Part shown: positions 727 through 52,307 of the stretch, piece by piece
Layout of the letters: every line of letters starts with the position of its first letter
Position numbering within the stretch: position 1 is the first letter of the stretch
Assembly (NCBI GenBank): GCA_043802785.1
Contig: JAZDKR010000024.1
Span: 97 to 64,096 of the forward strand
Direction: 5' to 3'
Origin: Elusimicrobiota bacterium
GTDB lineage: Bacteria; Elusimicrobiota; UBA8919
DNA: 64,000 nucleotides
Program-made: the position numbers and the translations under genes
The notes under the pieces: generated by a model
Seen by the model: the letters and a program-made list of their open reading frames with translations, nothing else
Databases searched by the model: none
Told to the model about the DNA's origin: nothing

Positions 727-2936
727 GCGTATTTTACCAAAAGTTTTTTCCAGAAGCCGGCGTCAAACTGAACAATAACTTTTGATTCGTCGCCGGAACC
801 AATTGCCTCTAAAATTTTCCCCTCTCCAAACTCCGAATGTTTTATTCGCATACCTTTATAAAAATAACCCGCCTCGCCGTGAACAGACCCAGATTGCACT
901 GCTTCCTGTTGAAAATCTGCCATGGCGGGTTGGTGTCCAATCAGAGTTGCATCTCTAAAAATTGGTTCGCGACACTCTTTTTTGAGTCCTGCCTCCTTCA
1001 CAAATCTTGAAGGAATACACCACCTCAATTGTCCATAAACTCTTCGTTGCGAAGCACCTGAAAGATAAAGATGTTCCTTTGCACGAGTCATCCCAACATA
1101 ACAGAGTCGTCTCTCTTCTTCAAGTTCTTCTAATGAATAAGCGGAATCGCCGACAGGAAAAAGTCCTTCCTCAAGCCCGGTGATAAAAACACACGGAAAT
1201 TCAAGTCCTTTGGCAAGATGAAGTGTTATTAATGTAACAAAGTCCTTTTTTTCGTCCCAAACACCAGCATCGGAAACAAGAGCAATATTTTCAATAAATG
1301 TTGCTAATTTTTTGTCCGGAGAATTCTGTTCAAAATCCACAATTGCCGACACAAGTTCCTGGACATTCTCAATCCTAGAACGCGATTCAATATCGTTTTG
1401 TGCCTCTAAAAGTTGAATGTATCCGGTTTCATCAATTACTATTTTTACAATTTCCGAGCAATGCATATTTTCTTTTTCGGCGAGCATTGAATCAATGAGT
1501 TTAATAAATTTTTCAGCCCTCGGGAGTTGTCCGTTTTGATACATTTCTTTTGCCGACTGATAAAGTGTTAAATTTTTGCAATTTGCCACAGCATTATTTT
1601 CTATTGATGAAAGTGTAACTTTGCCTATGCCTCTGGTTGGTGTGTTGATTATTCTTTTGAAACTGATGCTGTCGGAAGGATTATTGATTAACTTCAAATA
1701 GCCGAGGATATCCTTTACTTCCGCCCGCTCATAAAATCGTTGACTTCCGACGACAATAAAAGGCATTCCGAAACGAGTGAGTGTTTCTTCAAAAATACGC
1801 GACTGTGCATTTGTCCTGTAAAAAACTGCAAAATCAGAAAGCGATTTTCCTTCTGCGAAAATTTGGGATTTTATTTTTTCCGCTACACCTGTTGCCTCGG
1901 CAAATTCGTCCCTGAATTCAGTATAAGATACATCCTCGCCCTGTTGTTTATCTGTCCACAAATGTTTCGGCTTTCTGTGATGATTGTAACCTATCAGTTT
2001 TCCCGCTGTCTCAAGTATGTTTTTGGTAGAACGGTAATTTTGTTCAAGATACACGACGGTTGTTTTCTGGTAATCCCTTTCAAACTCCATAATGTTTCGG
2101 ACATCAGCACCACGCCAGGAATAAATCGTCTGGTCATCATCACCAACAACACAGATATTTTTGTATTTCGCCGCCAAAAGTTTCGTCAAAACATACTGTG
2201 CGTAATTTGTATCCTGATATTCGTCAATCATAATATATTTGAATCTTTCCTGATATTTTTCCAGCACACTTCGTGTGTTTTTAAAAAGTTCCACGGTGTA
2301 CCGTAAAAGATCGCCGAAATCAACAGCATTTGCATCTTCTAATTTCTTTTGATAAAGTTCATAGACATCGGCGACAATTTTTTTTATAGAATCCGGTGTG
2401 GTGTTAGCATGAATACTATACGATTCCGCATCCAAAAGTTTGTCCTTCGCGGATGAAATCATTCCCAAAATTAAAGATGGTTTGAATTTTTCAATATCGT
2501 AATTCAACTCTTTAAGGCAGGTCTCAACTATTTTTTTAGAGTCATTACCATCATAAATTGTAAAATCTTTGCCGAAGGGTCCGACCTGCGAGCCGTCAGG
2601 CAAAGTGTGTGCCGCCTCCATCCGTAAAACCCTTGCACAGAAAGAATGATAAGTGGAAATCCAGACATTAGCTGACGACGAACTGACAAGATTATTAATT
2701 CTCTCTCTCATCTGGGCAGCCGCTTTATTCGTAAATGTCATCGCTAAAACATTCCATGGAGCGATGCCTCCGATTTGAAGAATATGGGCGATGCGATAGG
2801 TGATAACACGGGTTTTTCCGGAACCGGCACCGGCAAGAATTAGAAGCGGTCCCTCGGTACATTTCACCGCATCCTGTTGCTTCGGATTCAAATCATCAAA
2901 AAGGTTCTTCATAAAAACAACGCGAATACACGCCAA
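705..2936 (-). CDS. uvrD: ATP-dependent DNA helicase, UvrD/PcrA family. The likely start is MKNLFDDLNPKQ, near 2912.
   Basis: Walker A motif AGAGSGKT. Full-length UvrD/PcrA architecture, about 735 aa. Confidence 0.9.
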   Translation of the reverse strand: MACIRVVFMKNLFDDLNPKQQDAVKCTEGPLLILAGAGSGKTRVITYRIAHILQIGGIAPWNVLAMTFTNKAAAQMRERINNLVSSSSANVWISTYHSFCARVLRMEAAHTLPDGSQVGPFGKDFTIYDGNDSKKIVETCLKELNYDIEKFKPSLILGMISSAKDKLLDAESYSIHANTTPDSIKKIVADVYELYQKKLEDANAVDFGDLLRYTVELFKNTRSVLEKYQERFKYIMIDEYQDTNYAQYVLTKLLAAKYKNICVVGDDDQTIYSWRGADVRNIMEFERDYQKTTVVYLEQNYRSTKNILETAGKLIGYNHHRKPKHLWTDKQQGEDVSYTEFRDEFAEATGVAEKIKSQIFAEGKSLSDFAVFYRTNAQSRIFEETLTRFGMPFIVVGSQRFYERAEVKDILGYLKLINNPSDSISFKRIINTPTRGIGKVTLSSIENNAVANCKNLTLYQSAKEMYQNGQLPRAEKFIKLIDSMLAEKENMHCSEIVKIVIDETGYIQLLEAQNDIESRSRIENVQELVSAIVDFEQNSPDKKLATFIENIALVSDAGVWDEKKDFVTLITLHLAKGLEFPCVFITGLEEGLFPVGDSAYSLEELEEERRLCYVGMTRAKEHLYLSGASQRRVYGQLRWCIPSRFVKEAGLKKECREPIFRDATLIGHQPAMADFQQEAVQSGSVHGEAGYFYKGMRIKHSEFGEGKILEAIGSGDESKVIVQFDAGFWKKLLVKYAGLTNAN

Positions 2937-3012
2937 TCAAACACAAATATTCGCGAATAATTCGCATTACATTCGCGACCATTCGCGTTGTCTCTTATTC
3001 GCGTTTATTCGC
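2921..3012. promoter_or_regulatory. CGCGAA phased repeat array (A2), directly upstream of the uvrD start.
   Basis: Sequence cgcgaata...attcgcgaataattcgcattacattcgcgaccattcgcgttgtctcttattcgcgtttattcgcgtg. It is the same family as the element at 9556-9695. Confidence 0.6.
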
Positions 3013-3418
3013 GTGCATCTTCCGTAACTATCTCTTTAATCTCTTTAATATCTTTAATCTTTACAACATCGGACATTTTCAATTTTGAAAATTTAACCCC
3101 ATACCGATAAATACCGTCTTTCTCTTCGGCACGCATAATTTCACACATTACTTCCATCGGTATACTCATACGCACAAAAAACGGCTTTTTCTCATCAATC
3201 TTAAAATTGGTTTCAAATGCAATCCCGGTTTTTGATAAATCAAAAACGCAACCCTTTCCACTTAATTCAAGAGTTTCTGCATTGTAAATATCCGCCACAA
3301 TCATCATTGGCAACCGTCTGTGTTTTCTTTTTTCTTTTGACATATTTCCACCTCCGTAAAAGCACGCGAATTTACGCGAATCAAACGCAAATATTCGAGA
3401 ATATTCGCGTTCCTTCAT
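3005..3418 (-). CDS. PilZ-domain c-di-GMP-binding protein. The likely start is MSKEKRKHRRL, near 3343; the residues before it are encoded by repeat A3.
   Basis: Has the PilZ signatures: an RxxxR-like stretch (KRKHRRL) and DLSKTGIAFE (a D/NxSxGG-like motif). Confidence 0.65.
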   Translation of the reverse strand: MKEREYSRIFAFDSRKFACFYGGGNMSKEKRKHRRLPMMIVADIYNAETLELSGKGCVFDLSKTGIAFETNFKIDEKKPFFVRMSIPMEVMCEIMRAEEKDGIYRYGVKFSKLKMSDVVKIKDIKEIKEIVTEDARE

Positions 3419-4443: not shown

Positions 4444-5805
4444 TCACGGCCGTATCAGAATACCATGCACTTTTAATATCTGCATCGCCATCTCAAGAAT
4501 CTCATCTTTTACTATATCTTTTTGCCCTCCGGACACCGTCGTAGATGTTTTTACATCATACCTGCCTGACGGCTCGCCTCGCCCTCTTATCGTCGAGGAT
4601 GGCTGCGAAGCGGGCTGCCGAGCAGGTTTTTTGTCCCTGTCTCTGGCATCCGCAATTTCAGTATCAATCTCCTGTTTTTGAAGTGATATCTCTGCTTCTC
4701 GGCTAACCTCAACAACTATGTCTGGTGTAATGCCGCCTGTTTTCTTTTCTTCGTCACGATGAATACATTTTCCCGACGGTGTGTAATACTTCTGTGTCGT
4801 AAGTCGCAAAGATGACTCGCCTTCCAAAGGAAGCAATGACTGCACGGAACCCTTGCCGAATGACTGCATTCCAACAATAATTCCCCTTTTATTATCCTGC
4901 ATACAACCGGCAACTATTTCACTGCCGGATGCGGAACCTTTGTTGACAAGAACGGCAAGCGGAATATCGGAATATGGAGCCGTAGCATCAGCACGATATT
5001 CATATTTTGGAAACTTTCTGCCCTGTGTATAGACGATAAGTTTGTTTTCGCCGATAAATCTTTTACAGATGTCCGCCGCGGTATTGAGCAGCCCACCTGG
5101 GTCGTTTCTTAAATCAACAATTAGTGACTTCATTCCCTTGCTTTTCAAATCTAACAATGCCTTGTCAAGTTCTTCAATTGTCTTGGCAGTCATCTCGGTA
5201 ATTCTAAAGTATCCGATTGACTCGTCCAACATTTTTGTGCAAGTTACAGTAATAATGGGAATATCCTCACGAGTGATTGTTAAATCAAACGGCTCAGTTT
5301 TTTCCCGAAATATCGTAATTGTAACTTTCGTTCCGGGTTTTCCGCGAAGTTTTTCTACTGCTTTATCCGTTGAAATATCTTTTGCACTTTCGCCGTCAAT
5401 TTTTATAATTTTATCCTCGGGCAAAATTCCCATTCTCCATGCGGGCGTTCCGGGGATAGGTGTGACAACCGTAATCCATCCGTCTTTTGAAGATGTAATT
5501 CTGATGCCGAGCCCTCCGAAATGTCCTTCGGTATGAACCTTCATTTCTTTCGCTTCCTGCGGCTCCATAAACTGTGAATACGGGTCAAGAGTTCTTATCA
5601 TACCGTCGGCCGCACCGTAAATAAGTTTTTTCATATCCGGCTCGTCCACATAACTTTCACGGACATAAACTAATATCTGTGACAAAATTTTTATCTGTCC
5701 GTAAATATCGTCACTGGCAGCTTTTATGGTATCAAATTTGGACAGCGACACACTTATTACAAAAAACAAAACAGCGACAAAAACCCAACCTTTTTTCTTT
5801 AACAT
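4444..5805 (-). CDS. ctpA: C-terminal processing peptidase, family S41 (CtpA/Prc-like), with a PDZ domain. Carries an in-frame repeat insertion near the C-terminus, at about 4555-4626.
   Basis: Signal anchor, PDZ domain, GSASGSEIVAG and a conserved S41 core. The insertion encodes PARQPASQPSSTIRGRGEPSGRYD. Confidence 0.8.
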   Translation of the reverse strand: MLKKKGWVFVAVLFFVISVSLSKFDTIKAASDDIYGQIKILSQILVYVRESYVDEPDMKKLIYGAADGMIRTLDPYSQFMEPQEAKEMKVHTEGHFGGLGIRITSSKDGWITVVTPIPGTPAWRMGILPEDKIIKIDGESAKDISTDKAVEKLRGKPGTKVTITIFREKTEPFDLTITREDIPIITVTCTKMLDESIGYFRITEMTAKTIEELDKALLDLKSKGMKSLIVDLRNDPGGLLNTAADICKRFIGENKLIVYTQGRKFPKYEYRADATAPYSDIPLAVLVNKGSASGSEIVAGCMQDNKRGIIVGMQSFGKGSVQSLLPLEGESSLRLTTQKYYTPSGKCIHRDEEKKTGGITPDIVVEVSREAEISLQKQEIDTEIADARDRDKKPARQPASQPSSTIRGRGEPSGRYDVKTSTTVSGGQKDIVKDEILEMAMQILKVHGILIRP

Positions 5806-5811: not shown

Positions 5812-5948
5812 TCCCCCAGTTGGAACAGGGTGTAGGGGATAGTGGTTAGGGGATAGTTAAAATCAACGACTTTTCTACACCCTAAATCCTACCCACTATT
5901 CCCTGTCGTTTAACTACTCCCTACTCCCTATTCCCTACTCCCTGCCTT
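5812..5948. repeat. Hairpin made of GGGGATAG-type tandem units plus the inverted copies (ctactccctattccctactccctgcc).
   Basis: Sequence gggtgtaggggatagtggttaggggatag ... ctacaccctaaatcctacccactattccct. Several GGGG runs. Confidence 0.6.
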
Positions 5949-5949
5949 T

Positions 5950-7194
5950 TTATTTCAGCCACACCAGCGGGTCCTGCGGAACACCATTTTTGCGAAATTC
6001 AAAATACAACGACGCATCCTGCGAATAGACGGAAATACCGACGATACCGATATCTTCACCTTTCTGAATATCCTGCTCCTCTTTAACATTTATCTTGTCA
6101 AGATTACCATAAACCGTGTAAAATCCGCCGGAGTGGTCAATAACAACCATTTTTCCGTACGACTTAAAATCGCCCGCAAACACAACTTTTCCTTTGTCAA
6201 CCGCTGCGATATTTTGTCCGAGCGTTGACCTAATCCTGATTCCATTATTTATAATCCATGTATCAAGTTCCGGATGCTTTTGTTTGCCGAAAGTTACAGT
6301 TAAATTATTCCTTAATTCCGACGGTTCACCGTCAATAGGCCATGATATATTACCTTTCTTTTTTGACATTTTTAATCTTTCTAATTGCTCTTCCTCTTTT
6401 TGTCTAACAGTTTTAGTTGCTTTTTTTTCCAAAAGTTTTATTAACTCTGAAAGCATCGTCTCTGAATCCCGCAAATTTGCAACCTCCTGCTCATAAAAGA
6501 CCAGTTTTTTAACTACGGTTGATAATAATTTTTTTTTTTCTTTTTTTTGTCGTGCGTACAATTGTTCAGAGTTTTTTTTCTTTTCTTCAAGTTCTTTTAA
6601 TCCGTTCATCTCCGTTTCAAGTTTTATTTTAATTGTTTCATATTCCTGAACATTTTTTAGCGTCTGCGTGTAAATAAACAATTTTTGCCGTGCTAAAAGT
6701 TGAAGAAACTTATACTGTTTAACCATATCAGCAGACGAATTTGAAGAAAGTATTATTCTTGCAGGATACTGGTCGGTCATGGGTCTCCCTACACCATATT
6801 TATATGCAAATCTTAATTCTTTTTTAAATATATTTTTCCATCTAACCGTTTCAAATTTTGCAGTTTCTAATTTTAATTTCAGTGCATCAATTGATTTTTG
6901 CTGTTTTTTTATTAGTATTTTTGTTCTGTACAATTCGGCTTTTGTGGTTTCAAGTTTCCTTACAGTATTTTCAAGATGCGTTTCAAGAGATGCCTCTTTC
7001 TTCTTTATGGTTTTTATATTATTTTCTTTATGAGAAATTTCCGACTGAACACCGACAAGTTCTTTTCTACTTTCTTTAATTTTCTGTTTATATTCTTTTA
7101 CCTGTTTATCATAATCGGAAGCATAAAGGGCAGGGGTTAGGGTATAGGGTATAGGGTATAGGAAAAGCAAAAACAATAAAATAAATTTTTTCAT
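5950..7194 (-). CDS. envC: Coiled-coil M23 peptidase-domain protein, resembling the murein hydrolase activator EnvC.
   Basis: Signal peptide, a long coiled coil and a C-terminal M23 domain (VVIDHSGGFYTVYGNL). Lies next to ftsX. The N-terminal LYPIPYTLTP stretch is encoded by (GGGTATAG)3. Confidence 0.7.
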   Translation of the reverse strand: MKKFILLFLLFLYPIPYTLTPALYASDYDKQVKEYKQKIKESRKELVGVQSEISHKENNIKTIKKKEASLETHLENTVRKLETTKAELYRTKILIKKQQKSIDALKLKLETAKFETVRWKNIFKKELRFAYKYGVGRPMTDQYPARIILSSNSSADMVKQYKFLQLLARQKLFIYTQTLKNVQEYETIKIKLETEMNGLKELEEKKKNSEQLYARQKKEKKKLLSTVVKKLVFYEQEVANLRDSETMLSELIKLLEKKATKTVRQKEEEQLERLKMSKKKGNISWPIDGEPSELRNNLTVTFGKQKHPELDTWIINNGIRIRSTLGQNIAAVDKGKVVFAGDFKSYGKMVVIDHSGGFYTVYGNLDKINVKEEQDIQKGEDIGIVGISVYSQDASLYFEFRKNGVPQDPLVWLK

Positions 7195-9555: not shown

Positions 9556-9695
9556 TATCGTCGCTTCGCTCCTACGCGAATAATCGCTAATCAAACGCAA
9601 ATATTCGCGAATATCTGCATTCCATTCACGACCATTCGCATTGTTTTTATTCGCGTGTATTCGCGTGCCACTTATTCGCGTCTATTCGCGTTTTA
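9556..9695. promoter_or_regulatory. CGCGAA phased repeat array (A4), the longest copy, upstream of csaB.
   Basis: Sequence cgcgaataatcgctaatcaaacgcaaatattcgcgaatatctgcattccattcacgaccattcgcattgtttttattcgcgtgtattcgcgtgccacttattcgcgtctattcgcg. Nearly identical to 50396-50510. Confidence 0.65.
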
Positions 9696-11161
9696 ATATA
9701 AATCAAAATTATTCCCAAAATCAAACCTAAAAAAATCCCGTTAAAACTTCTCAAAAGCGAAACAAAAAAAGGAGTGTGTATGTGGCAGAATGTATTAATT
9801 ATTGAAATCTGACCTATAATACCGACGATAAAAAACGGTTTCCACAAACTAACCCCACAGGTAAGTGTGGGGTTAGTTTTGTATTTCAGATAAATTGCCA
9901 ATATCATAAAAGGATGACCTATTAGGAATTCCTTAAATCGTGGTCGGACATAAAATATTTTTTCTAAAAACAGACGAAAATTATCTTCTAAAGGTGTAGT
10001 TGAACCATAATTCCCGGTTCTGATGATATAAAAGCCAACTGCAATCAGTAAAAATCCAATAAAAATTGCTTCGCCATACAAAAGCGGTTTTTTCAGAAAA
10101 TTTTTTAAGTTACTTTTATACAGCAAATAAATTAAACATATCACTGGCAACAAAAAGGATATTTTTACTCCTCTAAATGTTTCAACGCCAAGCATAAAAT
10201 CTTTCGTGGATAAAAGTGATGATATTACTGTGCCTGATAAAAGTGAAAAAACTGTTATGACTGAAAAAATCAAAACGGTTTTTATTACCGAAAACTTCCC
10301 GTTAAAATTGTAACAAAAACATAGTGGTAAAAGACAAATTACCGGCGATATCAGTGCTATAAGAAATGAAAATAATTTTGTTAGTCCAACATATCTTGTA
10401 AGTTTGGGATTTACTTTTCCGATTACTTCGGGTTTGCCAATACAAAATCCGGAATTTTCAAGAATTTTCTTTGATTCTTTAATATATTCAAGAGCATTAT
10501 CAAGCGTTGTTTGGGACAAGTCCAGAATTATTATTCTAACATTTCTTTCAAATGCAGCACGATTTATCTTTTCTCCGATGGAGTCCCATTGGACAAGATT
10601 TTTTTTATAATCGGCATCCCATCTCAACTTAAAAACTCTGTAACCGCTGCCGGAATTTTTAAGTATTTTTTTAACTTCTTCCTGTTTGGCAAATTCAACA
10701 ATTCCGAATGTATAATTAAAATTATCTGGTATTTCGCCATAAAAATCGTCAGATAAAATGACTGCCAAAACATTCGGATTTTTTCTTGGGATTATGGAAA
10801 TATCGCCCTGAACCGAAAAAATAATATCAAGATTCAATTTTGAAACGACTGAAATTTTTTCTGATGAAACGCCAAGATATTTTTCCTGTGGAAATTTTTT
10901 GAATTCTGCATCCCCATTACCTTCGGCAAAAAAATCCTTCGCTTTTTCGTCGGAAATGACAACAGTATTTATTCCAGCAATTCTAAAATCTGTTAATTTT
11001 TCTACACCGAAAAAATCCACTATATCGTCATATTTAACGGCAAGTGCAACAGAATTACCGGACTGCTCGCAAATCCTGTTCTTTAACGGAGTAAATAAAA
11101 TTCCTAACAGAATTAAAAGAAAACCCGTGTAAATTAAGACAATTTTTAAAATTTTTTTCAT
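9647..11161 (-). CDS. Polytopic membrane protein of unknown function, with an N-terminal extracytoplasmic domain and a C-terminal block of about 8 TM helices.
   Basis: Hydrophobicity pattern only. I see no recognisable catalytic motif. Confidence 0.4.
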   Translation of the reverse strand: MKKILKIVLIYTGFLLILLGILFTPLKNRICEQSGNSVALAVKYDDIVDFFGVEKLTDFRIAGINTVVISDEKAKDFFAEGNGDAEFKKFPQEKYLGVSSEKISVVSKLNLDIIFSVQGDISIIPRKNPNVLAVILSDDFYGEIPDNFNYTFGIVEFAKQEEVKKILKNSGSGYRVFKLRWDADYKKNLVQWDSIGEKINRAAFERNVRIIILDLSQTTLDNALEYIKESKKILENSGFCIGKPEVIGKVNPKLTRYVGLTKLFSFLIALISPVICLLPLCFCYNFNGKFSVIKTVLIFSVITVFSLLSGTVISSLLSTKDFMLGVETFRGVKISFLLPVICLIYLLYKSNLKNFLKKPLLYGEAIFIGFLLIAVGFYIIRTGNYGSTTPLEDNFRLFLEKIFYVRPRFKEFLIGHPFMILAIYLKYKTNPTLTCGVSLWKPFFIVGIIGQISIINTFCHIHTPFFVSLLRSFNGIFLGLILGIILIYIKTRIDANKWHANTRE

Positions 11162-14823: not shown

Positions 14824-14972
14824 GTTAAAATCAGGGTTTAGGGTTTAGGGTTTAGGGTTTAGGGTTTAGGGGTTAGGGTGTAGTTAAAAGTCATTGACTT
14901 TACTATACCCTATCCCCTACACCCTGCCTCTAACTACACCCTATCCCCTACACCCTGCCTCTCTTATTGTCT
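14824..14972. repeat. (GGGTTTA)5-6 telomere-like tract, capable of forming a G-quadruplex, followed by two copies of a roughly 27-bp direct repeat (ctacaccctatcccctacaccctgcctct).
   Basis: Read directly from the sequence. It lies between rpmA and rplU. Confidence 0.8.
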
Positions 14973-15280: not shown

Positions 15281-15352
15281 ATTCAGGATTAAGTCGTAAG
15301 GATTAAGAAGTCAGGATTAAGAATTAAGTAAAAACTTAATCCTGCTTTTTTT
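15281..15352. repeat. GGATTAAG tandem repeat with an inverted copy, followed by a T-run. This forms a terminator-like hairpin on the plus strand.
   Basis: Sequence caggattaagaattaagtaaaaacttaatcctgcttttttt. Confidence 0.6.
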
Positions 15353-16142: not shown

Positions 16143-17059
16143 AAATCAACAACTACACAATCTATAAGACGGGTTTTGCCCACGATTACAGCAACTGCGA
16201 TTACAACTTTGCTTTTTATGTATTTTACTTCCTTAAGCGTTTCAGCATCACGAATGTCTATGTAGTCAATTTTATCAACATTTGGTAAAATTCCGCCACG
16301 GCGGATTTTTCCGCCAAAGCGGATCTCCGACAATATTTTTTTCATTTCGGAAATGATTTTTTTCGCTAATTTTACATTCTTATGTTTTATTAAATTTTTT
16401 GCCATTTGCAAAGCAAAAGAAATCGCGAGTGATCTTTTTCTTTCTGCCCCAGTTAGATAGGCATTTCTGCTGGACAATGCAAGTCCGTATTTTTCGCGAA
16501 CCGTCGGACAGGTAATAATTTGAACGGGGAAGTTGAGGTCGGAAACCATTTTTCTAATAATGACCGACTGTTGAAAATCTTTTAATCCGAAATATGCTTT
16601 GTCCGGCTGAACGATATTAAAAAGTTTAGCAACAATAGTTGCAACCCCTTTGAAATGTCCGGGGCGAAATTTTCCACACATTATATCCGACAATTTTTCA
16701 ACCATTATGTAAGTCAGATAATTTTCAGGATACATTTCAGACGGTTCTGGAGCAAAAACCAAATCCACACCTTCATTTTTACATATAGCGATATCTTTTT
16801 TAATTGGTCTTGGATATTTGCTGAAATCCTCTTTAGGACAAAATTGCGTCGGATTTACAAAAATGCTGACGACAACTATATCGGTTTCTTTTCTTGCACG
16901 GCGAATTAAGAAAATATGTCCCTGATGTAAGGCACCCATCGTCGGAATAAAACCAATTTTTTTGTTGTGCTGTTTGAATTTGAGCACTAAATTTTGAATT
17001 GATTTGATACTATGAATTATTTTCATTTTTTTGACACAGAGGACAGCTCTCCGTGCCAT
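16139..17059 (-). CDS. panC: Pantoate-beta-alanine ligase. The likely start is MKIIHSIKS, near 17026.
   Basis: GFIPTMGALHQGHIFLI (the HxGH motif) and the overall PanC family pattern. Confidence 0.85.
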   Translation of the reverse strand: MARRAVLCVKKMKIIHSIKSIQNLVLKFKQHNKKIGFIPTMGALHQGHIFLIRRARKETDIVVVSIFVNPTQFCPKEDFSKYPRPIKKDIAICKNEGVDLVFAPEPSEMYPENYLTYIMVEKLSDIMCGKFRPGHFKGVATIVAKLFNIVQPDKAYFGLKDFQQSVIIRKMVSDLNFPVQIITCPTVREKYGLALSSRNAYLTGAERKRSLAISFALQMAKNLIKHKNVKLAKKIISEMKKILSEIRFGGKIRRGGILPNVDKIDYIDIRDAETLKEVKYIKSKVVIAVAVIVGKTRLIDCVVVDL

Positions 17060-17993: not shown

Positions 17994-17999
17994 CGGAAG

Positions 18000-18365
18000 G
18001 ATTGTTGGTAATAAAGATTAGGAGATTAGGAAAAAGAGTTAACTCCTCAAAACCAATTACTACTGCTGTGTCCCTAATTTCTTGACATTTGGCTGTTCCC
18101 GACAAATCGGGGCTCGTGGCAATCTCGGTATTAAAGTCGGGATTGCCTGCCCGACAGCTGTCAGGCGGGCTTCGGGCTTTGCCCTCGCAATGAGGCCGTG
18201 TCACAATTACCGTTTTTTTTGGTTTTGTCATTCCCGCATGTCTTTGGCGGGAATCCATTCTTCGACAATGACACAACTTGCTGGATTCCGTGTCAAGCAC
18301 GGAATGACGGACTTTTCAACAATTATGACACAGCCGCAATGACATGTAAAATATTTTATGCCCCC
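18000..18365. repeat. Cluster of nested palindromic elements spanning about 360 bp with no coding capacity.
   Basis: Motifs gtcattcccgc / cgggaatcc, ggattccgtgtcaagcacggaatgacgg and cgcaatgac. The plus-strand ORFs here (17965-18488) are artefacts of the repeats. Confidence 0.7.
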
Positions 18366-18369
18366 CAAT

Positions 18370-19452
18370 TTACAATTTTTCTTCTTTTCCTTCTTTTTTC
18401 GCCACAGACTCGCCTCGCTGCGAAGCGGGCGAACCTACTTGGTCAGCAGCGGGTATGCCGGCGGCTTTTTCGAATATTGCTTTCTTAATCTCGTCACTAA
18501 TCTTCGGGTTTTCCCTTAAAAATAACTTTGAGTTATCCATCCCTTGACCAAGTTTTTCGCCTTTATATACGAACCAACTACCGCTTTTTTCTATCACTGC
18601 GTATTCAACGCCGGTATCAATAATGCTTCCCTCCTGCGAAATTCCTTCGCCAAAAATCATTTCAAACTCCGTCTGTTTGAAAGGCGAGGCAACTTTATTC
18701 TTCACAACTTTAACGCGAACCCTTGTGCCTATTGCGACATCACCATCTTTAATAGTTGTCACTCGTCTGATATCCATTCGGATTGAGGCATAAAATTTTA
18801 AAGCCAAACCACCTGTTGTAGTTTCGGGATTGCCGAACATAACGCCTATTTTCTGTCTGATTTGATTGATGAAAATTATTGTAGTCTTTGATTTTGATAC
18901 GATGGCGGTAAGTTTTCTGATTGACTGGCTCATAAGCCTCGCCTGAAGTCCCATATGTGAATCACCCATTTCACCTTCAATTTCAGCTCGCGGAGTTAAC
19001 GCTGCAACGGAGTCAATAATAATTATGTCAACTGCATTGCTTCGGACAAGTTTTTCCGTAATTTCAAGTGCCTGCTCACCGGAATCCGGCTGAGAGATAA
19101 GAAGTTTGTCAATATCAACGCCGAGTTTTGTTGCATAAACGGGATCCATCGCATGCTCGGCATCAATATATGCGCAGGTCCCACCCAATTTTTGGGCACT
19201 GGAAATTACCTGAAGGCAAAGCGTGGATTTACCCGACGATTCAGGCCCATAAATTTCAACGATTCGCCCTTTCGGAATTCCGCCGACACCAAGTGCCACA
19301 TCAAGTCCGATAATCCCCGTCGGAATTGCTTCAACTTTTTGATGCGGGCTCTCACCGAGACGCATCACGGCACCTTTTCCGTATTCTTTTTCTATCTGTG
19401 AAAGTGCCAACTCCAACGCCTTTTCCTTGTCCGATTTTTCCGCCTTTGACAT
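18370..19452 (-). CDS. recA: Recombinase RecA. The C-terminal tail contains a repeat-derived segment at about 18400-18470.
   Basis: RecA core ([10 protein letters not shown] and so on). The C-terminal [16 protein letters not shown] is encoded by a ctcgcctcgc...gcgaagcgggc element shared with ctpA. Confidence 0.9.
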
Positions 19453-19625
19453 AAAAACCCCTCCTTTTTTCAGTAGTAAGGATTAAGTTATAAGTTATAA
19501 GAATTAAGAAGTCAGGATTAAGAATTAAGTAGTAAGAATTAAGTAAAAACTTAATCCTTAATCCTTAATCCTTATCATTTACCACTTACCACTTACCACT
19601 TAATCCTACCTTGCCTTATTCTACC
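19453..19625. repeat. Arrays of GGATTAAG / CCTTAAT and CCACTTAC tandem units forming inverted repeats.
   Basis: Sequence aggattaag(n) ... cttaatccttaatccttaatcc ... ccacttaccacttaccactt. Confidence 0.7.
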
Positions 19626-24822: not shown

Positions 24823-25515
24823 TTATTTTTCAAAGTCAGCCATTATCAATATTGCTTCAGCAATCTCTTTCATTGATTTTCGTCTATCCATCGCCTGTTT
24901 TTGAATCATATGGTATGCAGAATCCTCCGACAAATTATTTTTTTTCATTAAAAATCCTTTTGCTCGTTCCACAAGTTTCCTGGTTTCAAGTTCTTCAGAA
25001 ATAACTTTTGTTTTCACCAAAAGTTCTGTGTTTTCAATAACAATTGCTGACTGATTTGCAACTGCTGTTAAAACGTTTTCTTCTTTTTTTGTAAATCTAT
25101 GCGGACTTGATGTATAAACATCTATTGCCCCAATCACTTTCCCTTTTACAACAAGTGGAACACACAATAAGGACACAAGTCCTTCTTTTTTGGCAATCTC
25201 TTTGTATTTGTAAAATTTACTTTTTGATATATTCAAAACTACAATTGGTTTTTTTTCCTTTACAACTTTTCCAGCAATTCCTTCACCTGTTTTCAAAGGC
25301 GGTTTTTTCAGATACTCCTCTGAAATTGATTGTGACGCTTTTATCACAAGTTCTTTTTTTTCATTAAGAAGCATCAGTGAACATATTTTTGAACCAAGTG
25401 CCTGGGCAGTAACTGTAACAATGAGTTTTAATATATCGTCACGGTAAAGTTCCGAAGTTATCGCTTGTGAAATTTTTGCAAGTGCTTTAATTATATTGTT
25501 AGAATCTTTTTTCAT
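24823..25515 (-). CDS. GAF-domain protein with a C-terminal ANTAR RNA-binding domain (antiterminator-type regulator).
   Basis: GAF fold in the N-terminal two-thirds. The C-terminal LVERAKGFLMKKNNLSEDSAYHMIQKQAMDRR matches the ANTAR signature. Confidence 0.7.
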   Translation of the reverse strand: MKKDSNNIIKALAKISQAITSELYRDDILKLIVTVTAQALGSKICSLMLLNEKKELVIKASQSISEEYLKKPPLKTGEGIAGKVVKEKKPIVVLNISKSKFYKYKEIAKKEGLVSLLCVPLVVKGKVIGAIDVYTSSPHRFTKKEENVLTAVANQSAIVIENTELLVKTKVISEELETRKLVERAKGFLMKKNNLSEDSAYHMIQKQAMDRRKSMKEIAEAILIMADFEK

Positions 25516-25594
25516 TTTTGTTTGGTTCCGCAGCCGCTACAAACAGAGCCTGCCTGACGGCAGGCGGGACTACGGGCTTCTTATGTTTTTCTAT

Positions 25595-28091: not shown

Positions 28092-28109
28092 TGTTTCGCC
28101 TCCTGTTCA

Positions 28110-28160
28110 GGATTAAGGATTAAGTAGTAAGGATTAAGTTTTTTCTTAATCCTGCCTTTG
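28110..28160. repeat. GGATTAAG hairpin (aggattaag tttttt cttaatcct).
   Basis: Lies between glnB and glnN. Confidence 0.65.
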
Positions 28161-28196
28161 TATTTTATTAAATAAATCTTGGAATGTCAAATTTTT

Positions 28197-28727: not shown

Positions 28728-29311
28728 CTATTCAATCAAAGTATATGCACCCTCTTGATGCTGGGTCAAATCAAGTCCAATTATCTCATCTATTTCGCTT
28801 ACCCTGACGCCGATGGTTAAATCAACCAATTTGTAAATGATAAATGTCATCGCAAAAGTATAGACAACGGTAACACAAACTGTAATTAACTGCATTATCA
28901 ATTGTTTCGGGTTTCCGAAAAAAAGACCGTTGTTGCCCGCTGGATTTATCAATTTTGAAGCAAAAAGACCCGTTGCCAAAGTTCCTAATATGCCGCTGAT
29001 ACCATGCACCCCAAAAGCATCAAGGGAATCGTCATAGCCCAATTTTGGTTTGATAAGACCGACCGCAACAAAACAGATAACACTAGCCGAAAAACCTATC
29101 AGTATAGCCGATATAACGGCGAAAAAGCAAGCGAGTATCCGAATAAAACCCATTGCAAACTCAAAACGCAAAGAACAATAAAGCACTGCATTAAAATGCC
29201 AAGAACATTTTTTCTTCTAACTATTCCTCCGTAAAAAAATGCAAGCCCTGTCGTCATCAACATCACAAACCCAGCCGATATCAAAACAAAAGCAGTATCT
29301 CCAGAATTCAT
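28728..29311 (-). pseudogene. amtB: Ammonium transporter relic. Only the N-terminal roughly 65 residues and the C-terminal roughly 140 residues remain, in different frames.
   Basis: The two ORFs 29099-29311 and 28728-29186 match the Amt N-terminus (GDTAFVLISAGFVMLMTTGLAFFYGGIVRRKNVL) and C-terminus (DAFGVHGISGILG ...). The span is 584 bp against about 1.2 kb expected. Confidence 0.75.
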
Positions 29312-29465
29312 ATTTCCCCCTAAACAAAAAAGTCCCTAATTCCACTTTTCCCACTTTGGAATTAAAGACCTCAATGTCTAACGAAAATTTTCTAACCGAC
29401 TCTGGCTACTATGAGGACTACATCGTCCTTTACTTTAATTATATCAAAAGCAATATAATTTTGCT

Positions 29466-29588
29466 AATGACTAACTTTTAGATGTTTTTCTCTCCAATCC
29501 TGATGAAGAACAATCGCCGCCATAATAACTGCAAAAAGTATTAACATCCCAAGACCAATATAAAGACCAATATCTTCCATATTCATTC
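29466..29588 (-). CDS. Small hydrophobic peptide of 40 aa (MNMEDIGLYIGLGMLILFAVIMAAIVLHQDWREKHLKVSH), translationally coupled to the upstream gene.
   Basis: An aaaggagaa ribosome-binding site and an ATGA stop/start overlap. Has a paralog at 30560-30652 with the conserved C-terminus KEKHLKVSH. Confidence 0.5.
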
Positions 29589-29786
29589 TCCTTTATCAAT
29601 AATGGTTCCAATAATTACAAATATTATCCAAAAACTCGCACCTAAAAATATCCTGATAATATTTAACTCTCCTGCTACAAAAGAGCCCAAAATAATTATC
29701 GCAAAAACAAAGTTGGCTGCGTTAAAAAATGCTTTTGCTAAATTTTCTCTTTGTTTTTTTGTAAAATTCATTCTGAGCATAATCAT
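29583..29786 (-). CDS. Small two-TM membrane protein of about 62-67 aa.
   Basis: Has a paralog at 30646-30858 (TKKQ(R/K)ENLAK(A/V)FFN ...). Preceded by a conserved promoter. Confidence 0.55.
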   Translation of the reverse strand: MIMLRMNFTKKQRENLAKAFFNAANFVFAIIILGSFVAGELNIIRIFLGASFWIIFVIIGTIIDKGE

Positions 29787-29815
29787 ACAAAATTATCAAA
29801 TTTTGTCAACCCCGT
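29787..29815 (-). promoter_or_regulatory. Sigma70-type promoter, TTGACA-N16/17-TATGAT. The -10 element overlaps the start codon, so the mRNA may be leaderless.
   Basis: Minus strand reads ttgacaaaatttgataattttgtatgattatgctcagaatg. Conserved in the copy at 30859-30887. Confidence 0.55.
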
Positions 29816-30077
29816 CAGAAAGAATTCCAAAATTTCTAACGTGGTCAAGTGCTTTTTTGGTTTTCCCGAATGAAAAATCTTTAATCCCACTTTGGAATTA
29901 AAGACCTCAATGTCTGACGAACATTTTCTAACCAACTATGGTTTGTAAACTATTTTTTAACTAATACAAACAAAATATATCTTGTTACATATTCTCACTG
30001 TTGTCATTGCTTCGTTGTCCCGACTTGTCGGGACTCCTCGCAATGACGCTTTGCATCAATTTACTCCCGAGCGACCT

Positions 30078-30420
30078 TCATATTTCTGTTGGTATAACCT
30101 CTTTTGAGCGAAACTCTTTTGGGACATAAATATATCCGGAATATGGTTTTTTTTCTTTAACAACCATTCCGGCAAGACCTTCGCCTATTTTAAGTGGTGG
30201 TTTTTTCAAATACTCATTTGAAATTGACTGGGAAGCCCTGATTACAAGTTCATTGTTTTCATTTAAAAGCATTAACGAACATATCTTGAAACCAAATACT
30301 TCAGCAGTAATTGTTACAATCAATTTAAGGATATCGTCAAGATAAAGTTCTGAAGTTATTGCCTGTGATATTTTAGTGAGTGCCTCTATTCACTTACACT
30401 TTTTTCTTTCATATTTTTTT
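30078..30420 (-). pseudogene. Truncated, frameshifted paralog of the GAF-ANTAR gene at 24823-25515. Only the N-terminal third remains.
   Basis: About 70 percent identity to residues 30-120 of the full gene, plus an upstream stretch in another frame. No ANTAR domain. Confidence 0.7.
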
Positions 30421-30559
30421 CCTCCACAAAATAAAAAATCCTCATACCGTCTTTGGCGGATGGCAACATATCATCCGCCTATGGCATGAGGACTACATCG
30501 TCCTTTACTTTAATTATATCAAAAGCAATATAATTTTGCTAATGACTAACTTTTAGATG

Positions 30560-30652
30560 TTTTTCTTTTCTATTCTGGTTAATAACAATTCCACCGATAA
30601 CCAAAGTAAAAGCTAACGCCACAAAAAATAACAAAGTAATCTCATTCATATC
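30560..30652 (-). CDS. Small hydrophobic peptide of 36 aa, the second copy.
   Basis: MNEITLLFFVALAFTLVIGGIVINQNRKEKHLKVSH. Same coupling arrangement as the first copy. Confidence 0.5.
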
Positions 30653-30858
30653 CCGTCTCCTGTATCAAGTATCACACCAATAATTAAAAACGCAAGAAAC
30701 AATATTACACCAACAATAAATGTAAATAGCGAAAATTTATCTGGCGTGGCGATTTTTCCTATAATAAGGGAAGCAAAAACAATTTGACTTAAATTAAAGA
30801 AAACTTTTGCTAAATTTTCTTTTTGCTTTTTTGTTAATTTCATTTCTGACATAATCAT
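30646..30858 (-). CDS. Small two-TM membrane protein, the second copy.
   Basis: Paralog of 29583-29786. The promoter TTGACA-N17-TATGAT is conserved at 30859-30887. Confidence 0.55.
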   Translation of the reverse strand: MIMSEMKLTKKQKENLAKVFFNLSQIVFASLIIGKIATPDKFSLFTFIVGVILFLAFLIIGVILDTGDGI

Positions 30859-31081
30859 ACAAAATTAAAAAAATTTGTCAAGTACTTTTTTTGAGAGTTA
30901 TTCAGGTTTGTGGCAAAAATATGAAGTTATTAAATTGTCAAGCCAGAAATTTATTGTATCATTTCCGTATCATCATTGTGAGATTGGTATTGTCAAAAAT
31001 AAAATGAAAAAAAAGACTACCACGAAAACACGTCTGACTGCCATGCCTGTCGTCAGCAGGCGTGGCTATGCTTCTATATTT

Positions 31082-34609: not shown

Positions 34610-34735
34610 ACTTCTTAAATCAGAATTAAGACATCAGTAATAAGGATTAAGCCGCTCACCCCGACAAGTCGGGGTTCGCTTTAAGTATTAAGTTTTTTCT
34701 TAATCCTTACAACTTAATCCTTAATCCTGCTTCTG
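34610..34735. repeat. GGATTAAG hairpin element with an embedded ccccgacaagtcgggg hairpin.
   Basis: Read directly from the sequence. Confidence 0.6.
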
Positions 34736-36524: not shown

Positions 36525-36625
36525 ACACCAGAGATTAGGAGATTAAGAAATTATGAGATTAGGGATGAGGCAAAATCTCAATATCCTAATCTCCTAATCT
36601 CCCAATCTCCTAATCTCTCTTTTTT
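36525..36625. repeat. GAGATTAG tandem and inverted hairpin element.
   Basis: Sequence cagagattaggagattaagaaattatgagattaggg ... ctcaatatcctaatctcctaatctcccaatctcctaatctctc. Confidence 0.7.
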
Positions 36626-38172
36626 ATCACCTGTCTCCCTCTCGCAATTGCCAGTTTATTGTCAGGAACATTCTCAGTAATGGTTGAGCCGGCAGCAATC
36701 AAAACCCCTTTTCCTATTTTAATAGGCGCAATGAAATTAGTATTGCTTCCGACGAATGTGGAATCGCCAATTTCCGTTTTATGTTTATTTTTACCGTCGT
36801 AATTACAGGTAATCGTGCCGGCACCTATATTTATATTTTTTCCGAGTGTAGAATCACCGATATATGAAAGATGTGAGACCTTTGTATTTTCACCAATAAT
36901 TGATTTTTTAATCTCCGAGAAATTACCGATGAGAGCGTGCCTTGCTATTTTTGTTTCCTTTCTTATATGAGAAAACGGACCTACTCGGACATCGTCGGCA
37001 ATTTCGGCTCCGCAAACAAAAGATGCCTTTATTTCAACATTTTTTCCGACGATGCAATCCTCAATATAACTAAAAGGTCCAATCGTGCTGCCCGTTTTTA
37101 TTTTCGTTTTGCCTTTGATAATTGTTGAAGGTAAAATAGTGACATCTTTTTCAATCTCAACCGTTTCCTCTATGTGAACTGTCCCGGGATTGACAATCGT
37201 AACGCCGGCGAGCATTAGATTTTTAAGAACCTTTTCTCTGATGTAATTCTCCGCTTGGGCAAGTTCGCATCTGTTATTTATTCCCATAATTTCCTTGAAA
37301 TCCTTAATTTTATAGGCGATAACTTTTTTGCGGGAACCGCTTCGACTTAAAATTGACACAACATCCGTCAGATAATACTCGCCTTTTGAATTATCGTTTT
37401 TTATCTCGCGCAGTGCAGAAAAAAGTTCTTTCGACGAAAAGACATAAATACCTGAGTTGATTTCCTTTATTTTTTTGATTTCATATGAGGCATCTTTTGC
37501 CTCAACAATTGACTTAACCGTTCCATCGATATTTCGGACAATTCTTCCGTAATGCGAAGGATTTTCTATCTCGCAAGTAAGCACTGTCGCAACAGCTTTT
37601 TCTTTTTTGTGAACTGATAGCAATTTGTCAACAGTTTCTTTCGTAAGAAGCGGAACATCACCGGAAAGTATAACCAAATCGCCTGTTCCCTCACAACGGG
37701 ACTCCGCACATTTAACAGCATCACCGGAACCAAGTTGTTTTTCCTGTTCAACAAAAACCACCTGACTAAGAGGTTGTCCGACAACCCCTGTTTTTTGGTT
37801 TTGACCGTCATTCCGTGCTTGACACGGAATCCATTCTCCGACGGTAACACAATTTTCTGAGAGCCTGCCCCGCGCTTTGACACGGGGGACCTTTTGACCA
37901 TTGTCGGACAACCTCCCAAGAGCCGTCATGCTTGCCATTCTATCGCTTATCGCTTTTTTGACAAGTTCTGCTTTGTGCCCTACAACGACAATTTTTTTAT
38001 CAAAACCGTTGTCTATAATTTCAATGACCCTTTCAATAATTGTTTTGCCCAAAATTTTATGAAGAACTTTCGGCGTTTCCGACTTAAACCTTGTTCCTTC
38101 ACCTGCAGCAAGAATAATACAAACAATACTTCCCATAGCAATTGAAATACAATGGAACCACGATGGAGACAC
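36610..38172 (-). CDS. glmU: Bifunctional GlmU (UDP-GlcNAc pyrophosphorylase / GlcN-1-P acetyltransferase). Carries an in-frame insertion of about 60 aa, at about 37764-37947.
   Basis: N-terminal LAAGEGTRFKSETPKVLH, a C-terminal left-handed beta-helix (hexapeptide) domain, and the glmU-prs-rplY-pth synteny. The insert encodes WIPCQARNDG, which is also present in a spurious ORF in the 18000-18365 repeat block. Confidence 0.85.
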   Translation of the reverse strand: MSPSWFHCISIAMGSIVCIILAAGEGTRFKSETPKVLHKILGKTIIERVIEIIDNGFDKKIVVVGHKAELVKKAISDRMASMTALGRLSDNGQKVPRVKARGRLSENCVTVGEWIPCQARNDGQNQKTGVVGQPLSQVVFVEQEKQLGSGDAVKCAESRCEGTGDLVILSGDVPLLTKETVDKLLSVHKKEKAVATVLTCEIENPSHYGRIVRNIDGTVKSIVEAKDASYEIKKIKEINSGIYVFSSKELFSALREIKNDNSKGEYYLTDVVSILSRSGSRKKVIAYKIKDFKEIMGINNRCELAQAENYIREKVLKNLMLAGVTIVNPGTVHIEETVEIEKDVTILPSTIIKGKTKIKTGSTIGPFSYIEDCIVGKNVEIKASFVCGAEIADDVRVGPFSHIRKETKIARHALIGNFSEIKKSIIGENTKVSHLSYIGDSTLGKNINIGAGTITCNYDGKNKHKTEIGDSTFVGSNTNFIAPIKIGKGVLIAAGSTITENVPDNKLAIARGRQVIKKRD

Positions 38173-51534: not shown

Positions 51535-52307
51535 ATAATATTTTTCGAAATCTTGGATTTGCCAATCGATCTATCGGCAAAAAATATAGGGTACTCAAAA
51601 ATTTTATATCCGAGTTTGTGTGCCCTGTATTTCATTTCTATCAAAAATCCATAACCCTCTGACTTCACTTCGTCAAGATTTATATTTTCCAGCACTTTAC
51701 GACGGAAACCCATAAAACCAGATGTGCAGTCATTAACAGGCATACATAAAACTGTTTTCGCATACAAATTCCCCAGACGGGATATTATTTTTCTATGGAC
51801 GGGCATTGAATTACAACCGCCTTTTACATAACGAGAACCGACTACTAAATCATAACTTTTGAGTTTTTTTAGGAACCCCAAAAAACATTCCGGGTTATGG
51901 GAAAAATCTGCATCCATAGTAAAAATAAAATCAAAATCTCTTACCAAAGCCCACTTAAATCCTTGAATGTATGCTGTCCCAAGTCCAAGTTTTTTTTCAC
52001 GATGAATAATTTCTAATTGAGATTGCGAAGATTGTTCCAATTCTGTCATATGAGATTGCTTCGTCGTCCCGATCTTATCGGGACTCCTCGCAATGACACT
52101 TTGTGCCGCTTTTAACCCTTCCGATATCTCTCCCGTTCCGTCGGGCGAATTATCGTCAATGATTAAGAGATTGAGATCGCCCGCCACACGGATCGGCGAG
52201 TCCGCCTTTGGCGGAAGATTGAGAACTTGGTCAACAATCTTTTCTATATTTTCTCTCTCGTTATATGTCGGGATTATAATCAAAACTTTACTTTTTTTTA
52301 GTGACAT
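51477..52307 (-). CDS. GT2 glycosyltransferase, polyprenol-phosphate mannosyltransferase-like. Carries two in-frame repeat insertions at about 52175-52214 and 52040-52105.
   Basis: IIIPTYNEREN ... DDNSPDGT. The inserts encode PPKADSPIRVAGD and ...ARSPDKIGTTKQSHMTEL... Confidence 0.7.
   Translation of the reverse strand: MSLKKSKVLIIIPTYNERENIEKIVDQVLNLPPKADSPIRVAGDLNLLIIDDNSPDGTGEISEGLKAAQSVIARSPDKIGTTKQSHMTELEQSSQSQLEIIHREKKLGLGTAYIQGFKWALVRDFDFIFTMDADFSHNPECFLGFLKKLKSYDLVVGSRYVKGGCNSMPVHRKIISRLGNLYAKTVLCMPVNDCTSGFMGFRRKVLENINLDEVKSEGYGFLIEMKYRAHKLGYKIFEYPIFFADRSIGKSKISKNIIWEAIFLVWKLKFMEIQPQ

Follow-up and report, generated by a model that had tools for sequence, protein, structure and literature searches.

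In-frame segments shared by recA and ctpA of an Elusimicrobiota chromosome: probable insertions of a dispersed GC-rich hairpin repeat

Why should two unrelated genes of one AT-rich chromosome, recA and ctpA, carry the same short GC-rich sequence in the same reading frame? The question is raised by a 64,000-nt stretch of contig JAZDKR010000024.1 (GenBank assembly GCA_043802785.1), called the window below, in which the two genes lie 14 kb apart. The chromosome is that of a member of the Elusimicrobiota, the window RecA being 94-95% identical to proteins from metagenome-assembled genomes (MAGs) with that label. The initial annotation had proposed that the C-terminal tails of RecA and of the protease CtpA both contain a repeat-derived element encoding a peptide of the PASQ..RGE type. 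Our conclusion, to which we give a probability of about 0.8, is that the two segments are insertions of a repeat family that have been tolerated in-frame.

The shared sequence, which we call the core, has two halves, each with exactly two occurrences in the window: CTCGCCTCGC at 4573-4582 in ctpA and 18409-18418 in recA, and TGCGAAGCGGGC at 4604-4615 and 18419-18430 respectively. The halves abut in recA to give a 22-mer and are 21 nt apart in ctpA, with the same orientation and reading frame in both genes. For the 12-mer TGCGAAGCGGGC, with up to one mismatch allowed, there are two matches in the window against 0.13 expected, and none of 100 shuffles reached two. The half-motifs are thus where the initial annotation placed them, as exact matches, and the peptides that it quoted for CtpA (PARQPASQPSSTIRGRGEPSGRYD) and RecA are correct by translation, the PASQ and RGE frame being read from the motif in both minus-strand genes. 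The shared motif forms a sharp GC island, with 76% GC in the insert against 38% for the window.

Polarity was read from DNA alignments with syntenic Elusimicrobiota relatives, locus L118 for recA and loci L123 and L124 for ctpA. In the alignment with L118, which encodes a RecA of 352 aa (P0006), there is one clean gap of 21 nt; outside it the tail of the window recA aligns base for base. At the junction the window reads GGTTC, the inserted GCCCGCTTCGCAGCGAGGCGA and then GTCTGTGGCGAAAAAAG, and L118 reads GGTTC and directly GTCTGTGGCAAAAAAAG; the flank that resumes right after the insertion, GTCTGTGGC, is the same in both. The PASQRGE peptide is present in none of the 40 closest RecA tails listed. 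It had been suggested that the RecA tail was rebuilt from repeat sequence, and this is not what the alignment gives, as only 21 nt (7 codons) were added and the remainder is native. A short acidic tail was also the wrong expectation, since in this clade the native tail is rich in Lys and Glu (for example AEKEGSSVAKKEEKEKK, and in relatives ...SVAKKEEKEKK).

In ctpA the two relatives run GA(C/T)AAAAAA straight into TA(T/C)GATG where the window has 66 nt, and the 22 inserted residues are missing from all 10 of the closest CtpA proteins. The element first proposed at 4555-4626 is thus real, although its extent is 4561-4626. The insert comprises residues 394-415 and lies 39 residues ahead of the C-terminus, in a variable linker before the conserved terminal helix. 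It was placed by solved CtpA sequences, to which the alignment stops at residue 366; an AlphaFold model from an 11-sequence alignment had a mean pLDDT of 47 and was unusable. The shared sequence is foreign to both genes and absent in relatives, which upholds the proposal that it derives from a repeat, and it is the location in a CtpA tail that has to be given up in favour of an internal linker. In the alignments with relatives there is no target-site duplication in the flanks of either insertion.

Both segments fold. In the recA context the hairpin is TCGCC-(T)-CGCT [GCGA] AGCG-GGCGA, with the 4-nt loop GCGA (-10.7 kcal/mol, z = -2.5). The ctpA 66-mer has three tiers, namely the outer arms, a middle stem made of the core halves and an inner CCTC...GAGG hairpin that fills the 21-nt spacer. 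The initial annotation had the element without this nested structure, without the further hairpin in the spacer and without the similar insertions in other window genes described below. TAA, TAG and TGA are absent from the core on either strand, so that all six frames are open, and four of six are open in the ctpA 66-mer. The ctpA outer arm has exact matches of 13-15 nt at 25549-25561 and 2588-2602. As a separate observation, the 9-mer TTATCGTCG of the inner hairpin has six sites in the window (4587, 7220, 9823, 26723, 32197 and 48615) where we estimate about 0.5, and GGTA comes next in four of the five copies outside ctpA.

The insertions are precise, in-frame and free of duplications. Five intragenic insertions could be mapped by DNA alignment, in recA, ctpA, panC, an open reading frame (ORF) of the DUF5693 family and the recA gene of the relative L122, and their lengths of 21, 66, 42, 21 and 30 nt are all multiples of three, for which chance without frame selection would be about 0.004 by our own arithmetic. 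The L122 case is an independent second insertion into the same gene. The L122 RecA is 78% identical to that of the window, and at the N-terminus it has the core with two substitutions, in the opposite orientation, in a 30-nt in-frame insertion (L122:3019-3049) that encodes TDRLASLRNG. At the 3' end of the same gene a different GC hairpin (CCTGCCTCGCAAGGCGGG) lies in the C-terminal tail. In this clade, hairpins have thus entered both termini of RecA on more than one occasion.

The core is also present in multiple copies in many other genomes. We scanned a species-representative set (one genome per species) for both core halves 0-30 nt apart and found the pattern at at least 117 loci. At least 73 exact contiguous 22-mers are in 773 kb of low-GC loci, against about 0.001 exact matches expected by chance across the low-GC genomes by our own composition arithmetic, and the matches listed include only ten variants with 1-4 substitutions. 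Among these matches a G precedes the core in 67 of 72 copies, so that the conserved unit is really a 23-mer; the consensus of about 23 nt, GCTCGCCTCGCTGCGAAGCGGGC, is a short hairpin. Copies elsewhere thus exist in number, and the RecA and CtpA segments are missing in relatives while the flanks align, so that neither of the grounds on which the initial annotation was to be abandoned, a lack of further copies and native conservation of the tails, was found.

The carriers among the matches listed are mostly low-GC MAGs labelled Patescibacteria (Levy-, Davies-, Curtiss-, Roizman-, Gottesman-, Moran-, Falkow-, Kerfeld- and Saccharibacteria), Omnitrophota, Bacteroidota (Lentimicrobiaceae, Sphingobacteriales and others) and Planctomycetota (Pirellulales), and several MAGs have 4-10 loci each. 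One locus labelled Gammaproteobacteria has flanks nearly identical to those of a Microgenomates locus; its label is suspect and we therefore rely on well-curated groups. Long-gap matches in GC-rich genomes (Nocardioides, P. fluorescens, Actinophytocola and others) were put aside as probable chance, as was a single contiguous match in a Phycisphaerae contig of 69% GC. Collections of viral contigs, phage, plasmids and E. coli gave no true core copy, the plasmid matches being weak and from GC-rich organisms. A literature search by core sequence strings returned unrelated papers only, and our literature searches found no description of the core sequence or of its in-frame spread.

Some copies of the core are bare, with AT-rich sequence on either side; others form the tip of a larger hairpin whose arms belong to a few recurring types (CCTGCCTG...CGGCAGGCAGG, CTGCCTCGCCGG...AGGCAGG, CCCGCCTTG...CGAGGCAGG and GGATTCCCGC...GGGAATGACA), and arms of the CCTGCC...GGCAGG type, as in ctpA, flank it in many other genomes. 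These flank classes are descriptive only, as complementarity controls were uninformative and the flanks of different loci share palindromic classes. Core copies may have central inserts of 6-9 or 21-22 nt, and one Omnitrophota copy (L040) has, like ctpA, a 21-nt central hairpin between the core halves. At locus L111 the palindrome CCTGCCTGCCGGCAGGCAGG is located within the core, the reverse of the nesting elsewhere, where the core is within CCTGCC hairpins. Nesting in both directions speaks for modules that are independent and can enter one another.

Among the matches listed, some 40% of 119 copies fall in an ORF that runs at least 150 aa from stop to stop; both orientations and all six reading frames are represented. 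Pfam shows genuine proteins among them: the domain match spans the element in TatD, TrxB and RsmH, the element is in the linker between two matched domains in CarA and YchF, and it is outside the matched stretch in two further proteins, one with DUF255 and one GalT-like. Similar hairpin modules interrupt other housekeeping genes with the frame kept, both elsewhere and in the window, where at least 7-8 of about 60 genes would be affected if our interpretation holds (Table 1).

Table 1. Positions in the window of the two core-bearing elements, their parts and host genes, and of other hairpin features
Feature	Position	Strand	Remarks
ctpA (S41 C-terminal processing protease)	4444..5805	-	host gene, otherwise intact
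recA	18370..19452	-	host gene, otherwise intact
ctpA 66-nt three-tier palindromic element	4561..4626	+	encodes PARQPASQPSSTIRGRGEPSGR on minus strand; absent in relatives
ctpA left outer arm CCTGCCTGACGG	4561..4572	+	imperfect pairing with 4616-4626 (fold)
ctpA core left half CTCGCCTCGC	4573..4582	+	exact copy
ctpA inner hairpin, 21 nt, CCTCTTATCGTCGAGGATGGC	4583..4603	+	between core halves; inner stem CCTC/GAGG
ctpA core right half TGCGAAGCGGGC	4604..4615	+	exact copy
ctpA right outer arm TGCCGAGCAGG	4616..4626	+	fold
recA 21-nt core, 3' tail, adds 7 residues	18410..18430 (equally 18409-18429, one-base ambiguity)	+	gap relative to L118
NTS/SRM-type hairpin TGTCATTCCCGC...GCGGGAATCCAT in recA-hydrolase spacer	18226..18258	+	sole strict SRM-pattern match in window, 0.07 expected; this repeat class is thus present in the genome too
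panC 42-nt in-frame double hairpin (CCGC-TTTG-GCGG / CCGCC-GTG-GCGG)	16293..16334	-	absent in L118; -20.6 kcal/mol
DUF5693-family ORF 9647-11161, 21-nt in-frame hairpin (GTCCAATGGGACTCCATCGGA)	10574..10594	-	absent in L123 and L124
glmU (ORF 36610-38172), 174-nt/58-aa composite hairpin insert	37765..37938	-	-70 kcal/mol
GT2 / dolichol-phosphate-mannose-synthase-like gene (ORF 51477-52307), 24-aa in-frame insert	52038..52109	-	no counterpart in 5mlz
uvrD/pcrA (ORF 705-2936), probable in-frame hairpin insert, GC island encoding LPDGSQVGPFG	2570..2602	-	about 8 extra residues relative to PcrA 1pjr/2pjr

The inserts in panC and the DUF5693-family ORF belong to sequence families other than the core of recA and ctpA. 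That in glmU corresponds to residues 67-124 of the query (MASMTALGRLSDNGQKVPRVKARGRLSENCVTVGEWIPCQARNDGQNQKTGVVGQPLS) and has no counterpart in S. pneumoniae GlmU (4aaw); it includes an NTS-like module (GGATTCCGTGTCAAGCACGGAATGACGG), terminal inverted repeats (GAGGTTGTCCGACAA / TTGTCGGACAACCTC) and a 29-nt perfect inverted copy of the intergenic sequence 18282-18310. The GT2 gene has, in the DNA of its 24-aa insert (GTCATTGCGAGG...CGACGAAGCAATCTC), a hairpin whose loop holds another hairpin (GTCATTGCGAGGAGTCCCGATAAGATCGGGACGACGAAGCAATCTC, VIARSPDKIGTTKQSH), and relative to 5mlz there is another in-frame GC-rich insert of about 8 aa at 52170-52217. The uvrD/pcrA site, for which the reference is a distant one, is provisionally taken as probably an insertion, and a stretch of its GC island, TGCCTGACGGCTCGC, is identical (15 of 15 nt) to part of the ctpA outer arm. 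In an L25/Ctc ORF (34736-35467) the stretch 34861-34899, in a tail beyond the Pfam domains, matches the right part of the ctpA element at 18 of 19 nt and may be a decayed copy.

One candidate for a further core copy was rejected. Positions 50912-50928, in an epimerase ORF (50497-51534), match the core at 16 of 17 nt (CCTCGCGGCGAAGCGGG), and we take this as probably native because the segment encodes part of what looks like a conserved epimerase motif, GPRQDPRGEAGVV. The segment is identical to a core variant of Sphingobacteriales loci. It shows that conserved motifs rich in GC may pass for the repeat, which calls for caution.

With regard to how such sequences might arrive, we suggest that copies of a dispersed non-coding GC-rich palindromic repeat have landed in genes of an AT-rich genome, the bare 21-nt core in the disordered C-terminal tail of RecA and a 66-nt nested version in the variable linker of CtpA. 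The nested form consists of an outer CCTGCC-type hairpin, then the core and then the small inner hairpin, and modules of this kind presumably insert into each other's loops. The only copies to survive selection would be those with an open frame and a length divisible by three that lie in surface loops or tails permissive to them, and the Pro/Ser/Gly/Arg/Gln-rich peptides would be translated as neutral extra loops without a designed function. The element would be a selfish passenger that is not autonomous and relies for its copying on an enzyme that acts in trans on single-stranded DNA hairpins. That the 22-mer is identical across phyla implies a sequence-specific partner. Candidates are an Ssn-type single-domain GIY-YIG nuclease and a RAYT/IS200-type HUH transposase, though to name a specific mobilising enzyme is at this stage speculative.

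The case for an Ssn-type enzyme draws on the work of Chenal et al (PMC11893778), who described 28-nt NTS hairpins and related SRMs conserved across phyla, which flank small single-domain GIY-YIG genes (ssnA) in the manner of an insertion sequence and are cut by Ssn as single-stranded DNA, the cuts falling next to the repeats. The SRM pattern is HGTCWY N0-2 YYVSBRH N0-5 WNVSBRG N0-2 RNCYNB (PMC11893778). At two Moranbacteria loci, L036 (5260-5710) and L025, a 93-aa single-domain GIY-YIG gene, identified by Pfam, lies between inverted hairpin repeats that begin TGTCAT, with a 31-nt form of the core in the upstream repeat and the downstream one empty, a layout that matches the published NTS-ssnA-NTS arrangement. 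At L064 a GIY-YIG gene is 2.7 kb from the core. The Moranbacteria protein had no NCBIfam hit, and its hits in the PDB, to SLX1 and UPF0213, were weak. Among the matches listed, loci with the core show an enrichment in SRMs of about 12-fold (12 versus 1), and when the SRM loop was relaxed to 60 nt there was one doubtful core enclosed by an SRM among 107 loci. The link of the Ssn/SRM systems to the window thus consists of the strict SRM and the NTS-like variants in it, the SRM enrichment and the Moranbacteria layout.

Several points weigh against our interpretation. The core copies that can be counted in the host are the two exact ones within the 64-kb window. There is no exact protein on record for the insertion-bearing RecA and CtpA alleles, nor were these alleles found in independent assemblies, and when metagenomes were scanned for the 3' end of recA, both with the insert and without it, only an insertion-free contig was recovered. 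No target consensus was found among the five mapped insertions; A-runs adjoin four of the five sites, yet Lys-rich linkers are A-rich anyway. No mobilising gene, Ssn-like or other, was found in the window, for which the Pfam scan covered part of the ORFs, or in about 80 kb of the relatives' loci. Near the 117 listed copies no mobilising or transposase-like ORF family is shared and only housekeeping families recur, in a comparison of ORFs of at least 100 aa that had low power, and in a tblastn search a GIY-YIG protein matched 3-4 of the 117 loci listed. Neither the ctpA nor the recA element matches the SRM pattern. The GTAG/CGTC tag of repetitive extragenic palindromes (REPs), by the rule in PMC3733652, is absent from the core and from the ctpA outer arms. 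Ssn is a nuclease for which DNA cutting has been shown, and insertion activity is not known. Lastly, that the inserts are neutral for their proteins we infer from their position only.

It has to be asked whether anything was inserted at all. Native low-complexity Pro/Ser/Gly/Arg linkers could converge by chance on the same GC-rich codons, and the epimerase segment above, with 16 of 17 matching, shows that conserved Gly/Pro/Arg/Ala motifs can indeed come close to the core. However no close relative has the segments, whereas the flanks do align base for base; the two copies agree in 22 specified bases and in their order, and the same 22-mer is in at least 73 low-GC loci elsewhere, so that we regard chance as extremely improbable. 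A local origin by quasi-palindrome template switching or replication slippage is just as improbable. Replication errors are known to include small palindromic indels, and the ctpA element does contain a tandem-like pair, CCTGCTCGGCAG / CCCGCTTCGCAG, but the flanks are without a donor sequence, and no local process could place one and the same 22-mer at two sites 14 kb apart as well as in dozens of other genomes. That library preparation or assembly spliced a technical or chimeric sequence into contigs is also very unlikely, if slightly less so. It would fit with the low-GC carriers being all metagenome-assembled, with no isolate, plasmid, phage or E. coli record that has the core, and with the failure to recover the window's insertion alleles elsewhere. 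On the other hand each gene resumes at the exact next codon after 21 or 66 nt, unlike a chimeric join, the copies come from many independent projects, including two whole-chromosome records (CP181398.1 and OY970292.1), and they are slightly diverged and in differing palindromic contexts.

If the segments are insertions, they could have been retained for a function or could belong to a familiar class of repeat. The hairpin could be a signal in mRNA or DNA (for stability, pausing, termination, recombination or control of transformation), or the peptide could tune autoregulation by the RecA tail or the length of the CtpA linker. In E. coli the C-terminal tail of RecA has a known regulatory role, and recA has been struck independently in two lineages, although permissive regions explain repeated insertion at RecA termini equally well. 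In Neisseria the NTS hairpins modulate transformation via Ssn (PMC11893778). An adaptive role is nonetheless improbable in our judgement, as the same core is in unrelated proteins, in either orientation and all six reading frames, and close relatives lack the insert; terminator and promoter scans called nothing at the recA or ctpA element, and Rfam gave no match at the gathering threshold or at E up to 10. We accordingly also rejected an intrinsic terminator or a described structured RNA. Somewhat less improbable, though still not favoured, is an ordinary REP or REPIN mobilised by a RAYT, an HUH Y1 transposase, that merely happens to be intragenic. An imperfect GC-rich palindrome of 20-40 nt, in multiple copies and without target-site duplication, is what one would expect of it. 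Against this, genes harbour about 40% of the copies, the low-power comparison of ORFs of at least 100 aa found no recurrent transposase-like family around the listed copies, and the core is identical across phyla, where REPs are normally species-specific. REPs do form nested or mosaic clusters (BIMEs; PMC11893778), but the GTAG/CGTC head of the rule in PMC3733652 is absent here.

A wider view goes with the interpretation of the segments as tolerated repeat insertions, and is more tentative. The core may be one module of a hitherto undescribed pan-phylum superfamily of GC-rich hairpins of about 20-70 nt that are spread horizontally and copied by an enzyme acting on single-stranded DNA hairpins, such as an Ssn-type GIY-YIG nuclease. 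Such modules might invade one another at the loop and also enter essential genes in-frame, in uncultured bacteria with AT-rich genomes (Patescibacteria, Elusimicrobiota, Omnitrophota, Bacteroidota and others), a possibility that we hold as doubtful at present. If it were true, Ssn/SRM systems would gain a repeat-propagating role and, through them, conserved proteins would keep acquiring new loops.

If the in-frame insertions are as we interpret them, hairpin repeats remodel core proteins (RecA, GlmU, PanC, CtpA and others) in little-studied phyla. There are practical consequences for MAGs also, as such inserts inflate apparent divergence, yield spurious "hypothetical" ORFs in annotation and can seed misassembly, and they are easily scored markers of recent insertion. 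How stop-free repeats can inflate gene calls is illustrated by the CtpA protein P0121 (512 aa) of L123, in which an 80-residue N-terminal extension (L123:8001-8250; GLPAVALRRS, LPGGRQV) looks as if GC-rich repeats lying upstream of the true start had been read through.

The intergenic regions of the window are rich in palindromes too. The spacer between recA and the hydrolase gene (17994-18369) is 376 nt in the window versus 58 nt in L118 and 177 nt in L120, and it is crowded with hairpin repeats, of the types GCAATCTC...CCTCGCAATGA, GCCTGCCCGACAGCTGTCAGGCGGGC and ATTCCGTG...CACGGAAT as well as the NTS/SRM type TGTCATTCCCGC...GCGGGAATCCAT. Long palindromic arrays with tandem heptamer-like units (GGATTAA, AGGGTAT/AGGGGAT, ATTCGCG and TAATCTC) are common to many intergenic sites, for example 15285-15343, 19469-19607, 28095-28167, 34612-34729, 5820-5956 and 7125-7161, and also 14826-14969, 48620-48864, 2911-3014, 9574-9707, 42474-42562 and 50414-50522. 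They resemble long hairpins at gene ends. Elsewhere, the ORF of an ammonium transporter (28728-29186) is truncated, as its match to the Pfam model is confined to the last third. The region with few ORFs that comes after it, within 28728-31082, has two diverged tandem copies about 1.07 kb apart (29411-29536/30486-30611 and 29722-29809/30794-30881), and a 247-nt repeat shared with 25246-25492 also follows.

It remains to relate the core to repeats already described. By likely machinery the nearest are REP/RAYT and NTS/SRM/Ssn, and by behaviour the palindromic elements of Rickettsia (RPEs) and the GC clusters of yeast mitochondria. With REPs and REPINs the core shares a small imperfect palindrome with a GC-rich stem, the 20-40-nt stem-loop size, multiple copies, mosaics and the lack of target-site duplication; it differs in that both window copies are intragenic and not extragenic, and in its identity across phyla. 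NTS and SRM repeats are likewise hairpins of 20-50 nt, present across phyla in many copies and beside a small GIY-YIG gene. However the core is without the oriented GTCWY head and does not match the pattern, and PMC11893778 describes no in-frame intragenic copies.

MITEs (miniature transposable elements with inverted repeats) such as QMITE1 and QMITE2 of Coxiella are also non-autonomous and lengthen ORFs or break them up, with a preference for 3' ends (PMC5896051). They are 150-400 bp with terminal inverted repeats and direct repeats of 2-11 bp, whereas here there is one continuous palindrome of 21-66 nt without direct repeats. PARCEL repeats (PMC2996958) were considered and dropped, being tandem coding repeats of 25 residues in proteins of unknown function and not dispersed hairpin inserts.

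The yeast mitochondrial GC clusters are short GC-rich palindromes in an AT-rich genome, mostly intergenic but in-frame in var1; they merge and shuffle into composites, their mobilisation mechanism is unknown and the 'byp' elements derive from them (PMC8811140). The likeness covers the short GC-rich palindrome, the AT-rich genome, the in-frame coding insertion and the merging. In contrast the clusters have AG/TAG terminal repeats that are read as target-site duplications, of which the recA and ctpA inserts have none, and their host is a mitochondrion and not a bacterial chromosome. The window inserts also differ from byp elements in being open-frame and multiples of three, and so are presumably translated and not bypassed.

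The RPEs are palindromic repeats inserted in-frame in unrelated housekeeping genes and translated, with several families per genome (PMC10969869), and the in-frame palindromic repeat in functional ORFs is found here as well, at a density that would be comparable if our interpretation holds. RPEs are about 150 bp and belong to Rickettsia. The units here are several-fold smaller (21-66 nt, with composites up to 174 nt), GC-rich in an AT-rich host, modular and nested, and common to several phyla with an identical core, a comparison made with the descriptions of RPEs and not their sequences. The core thus differs from each of these known systems in a defining feature, be it size, tags, direct repeats or host, while in its behaviour it comes closest to the RPEs and the yeast mitochondrial GC clusters.

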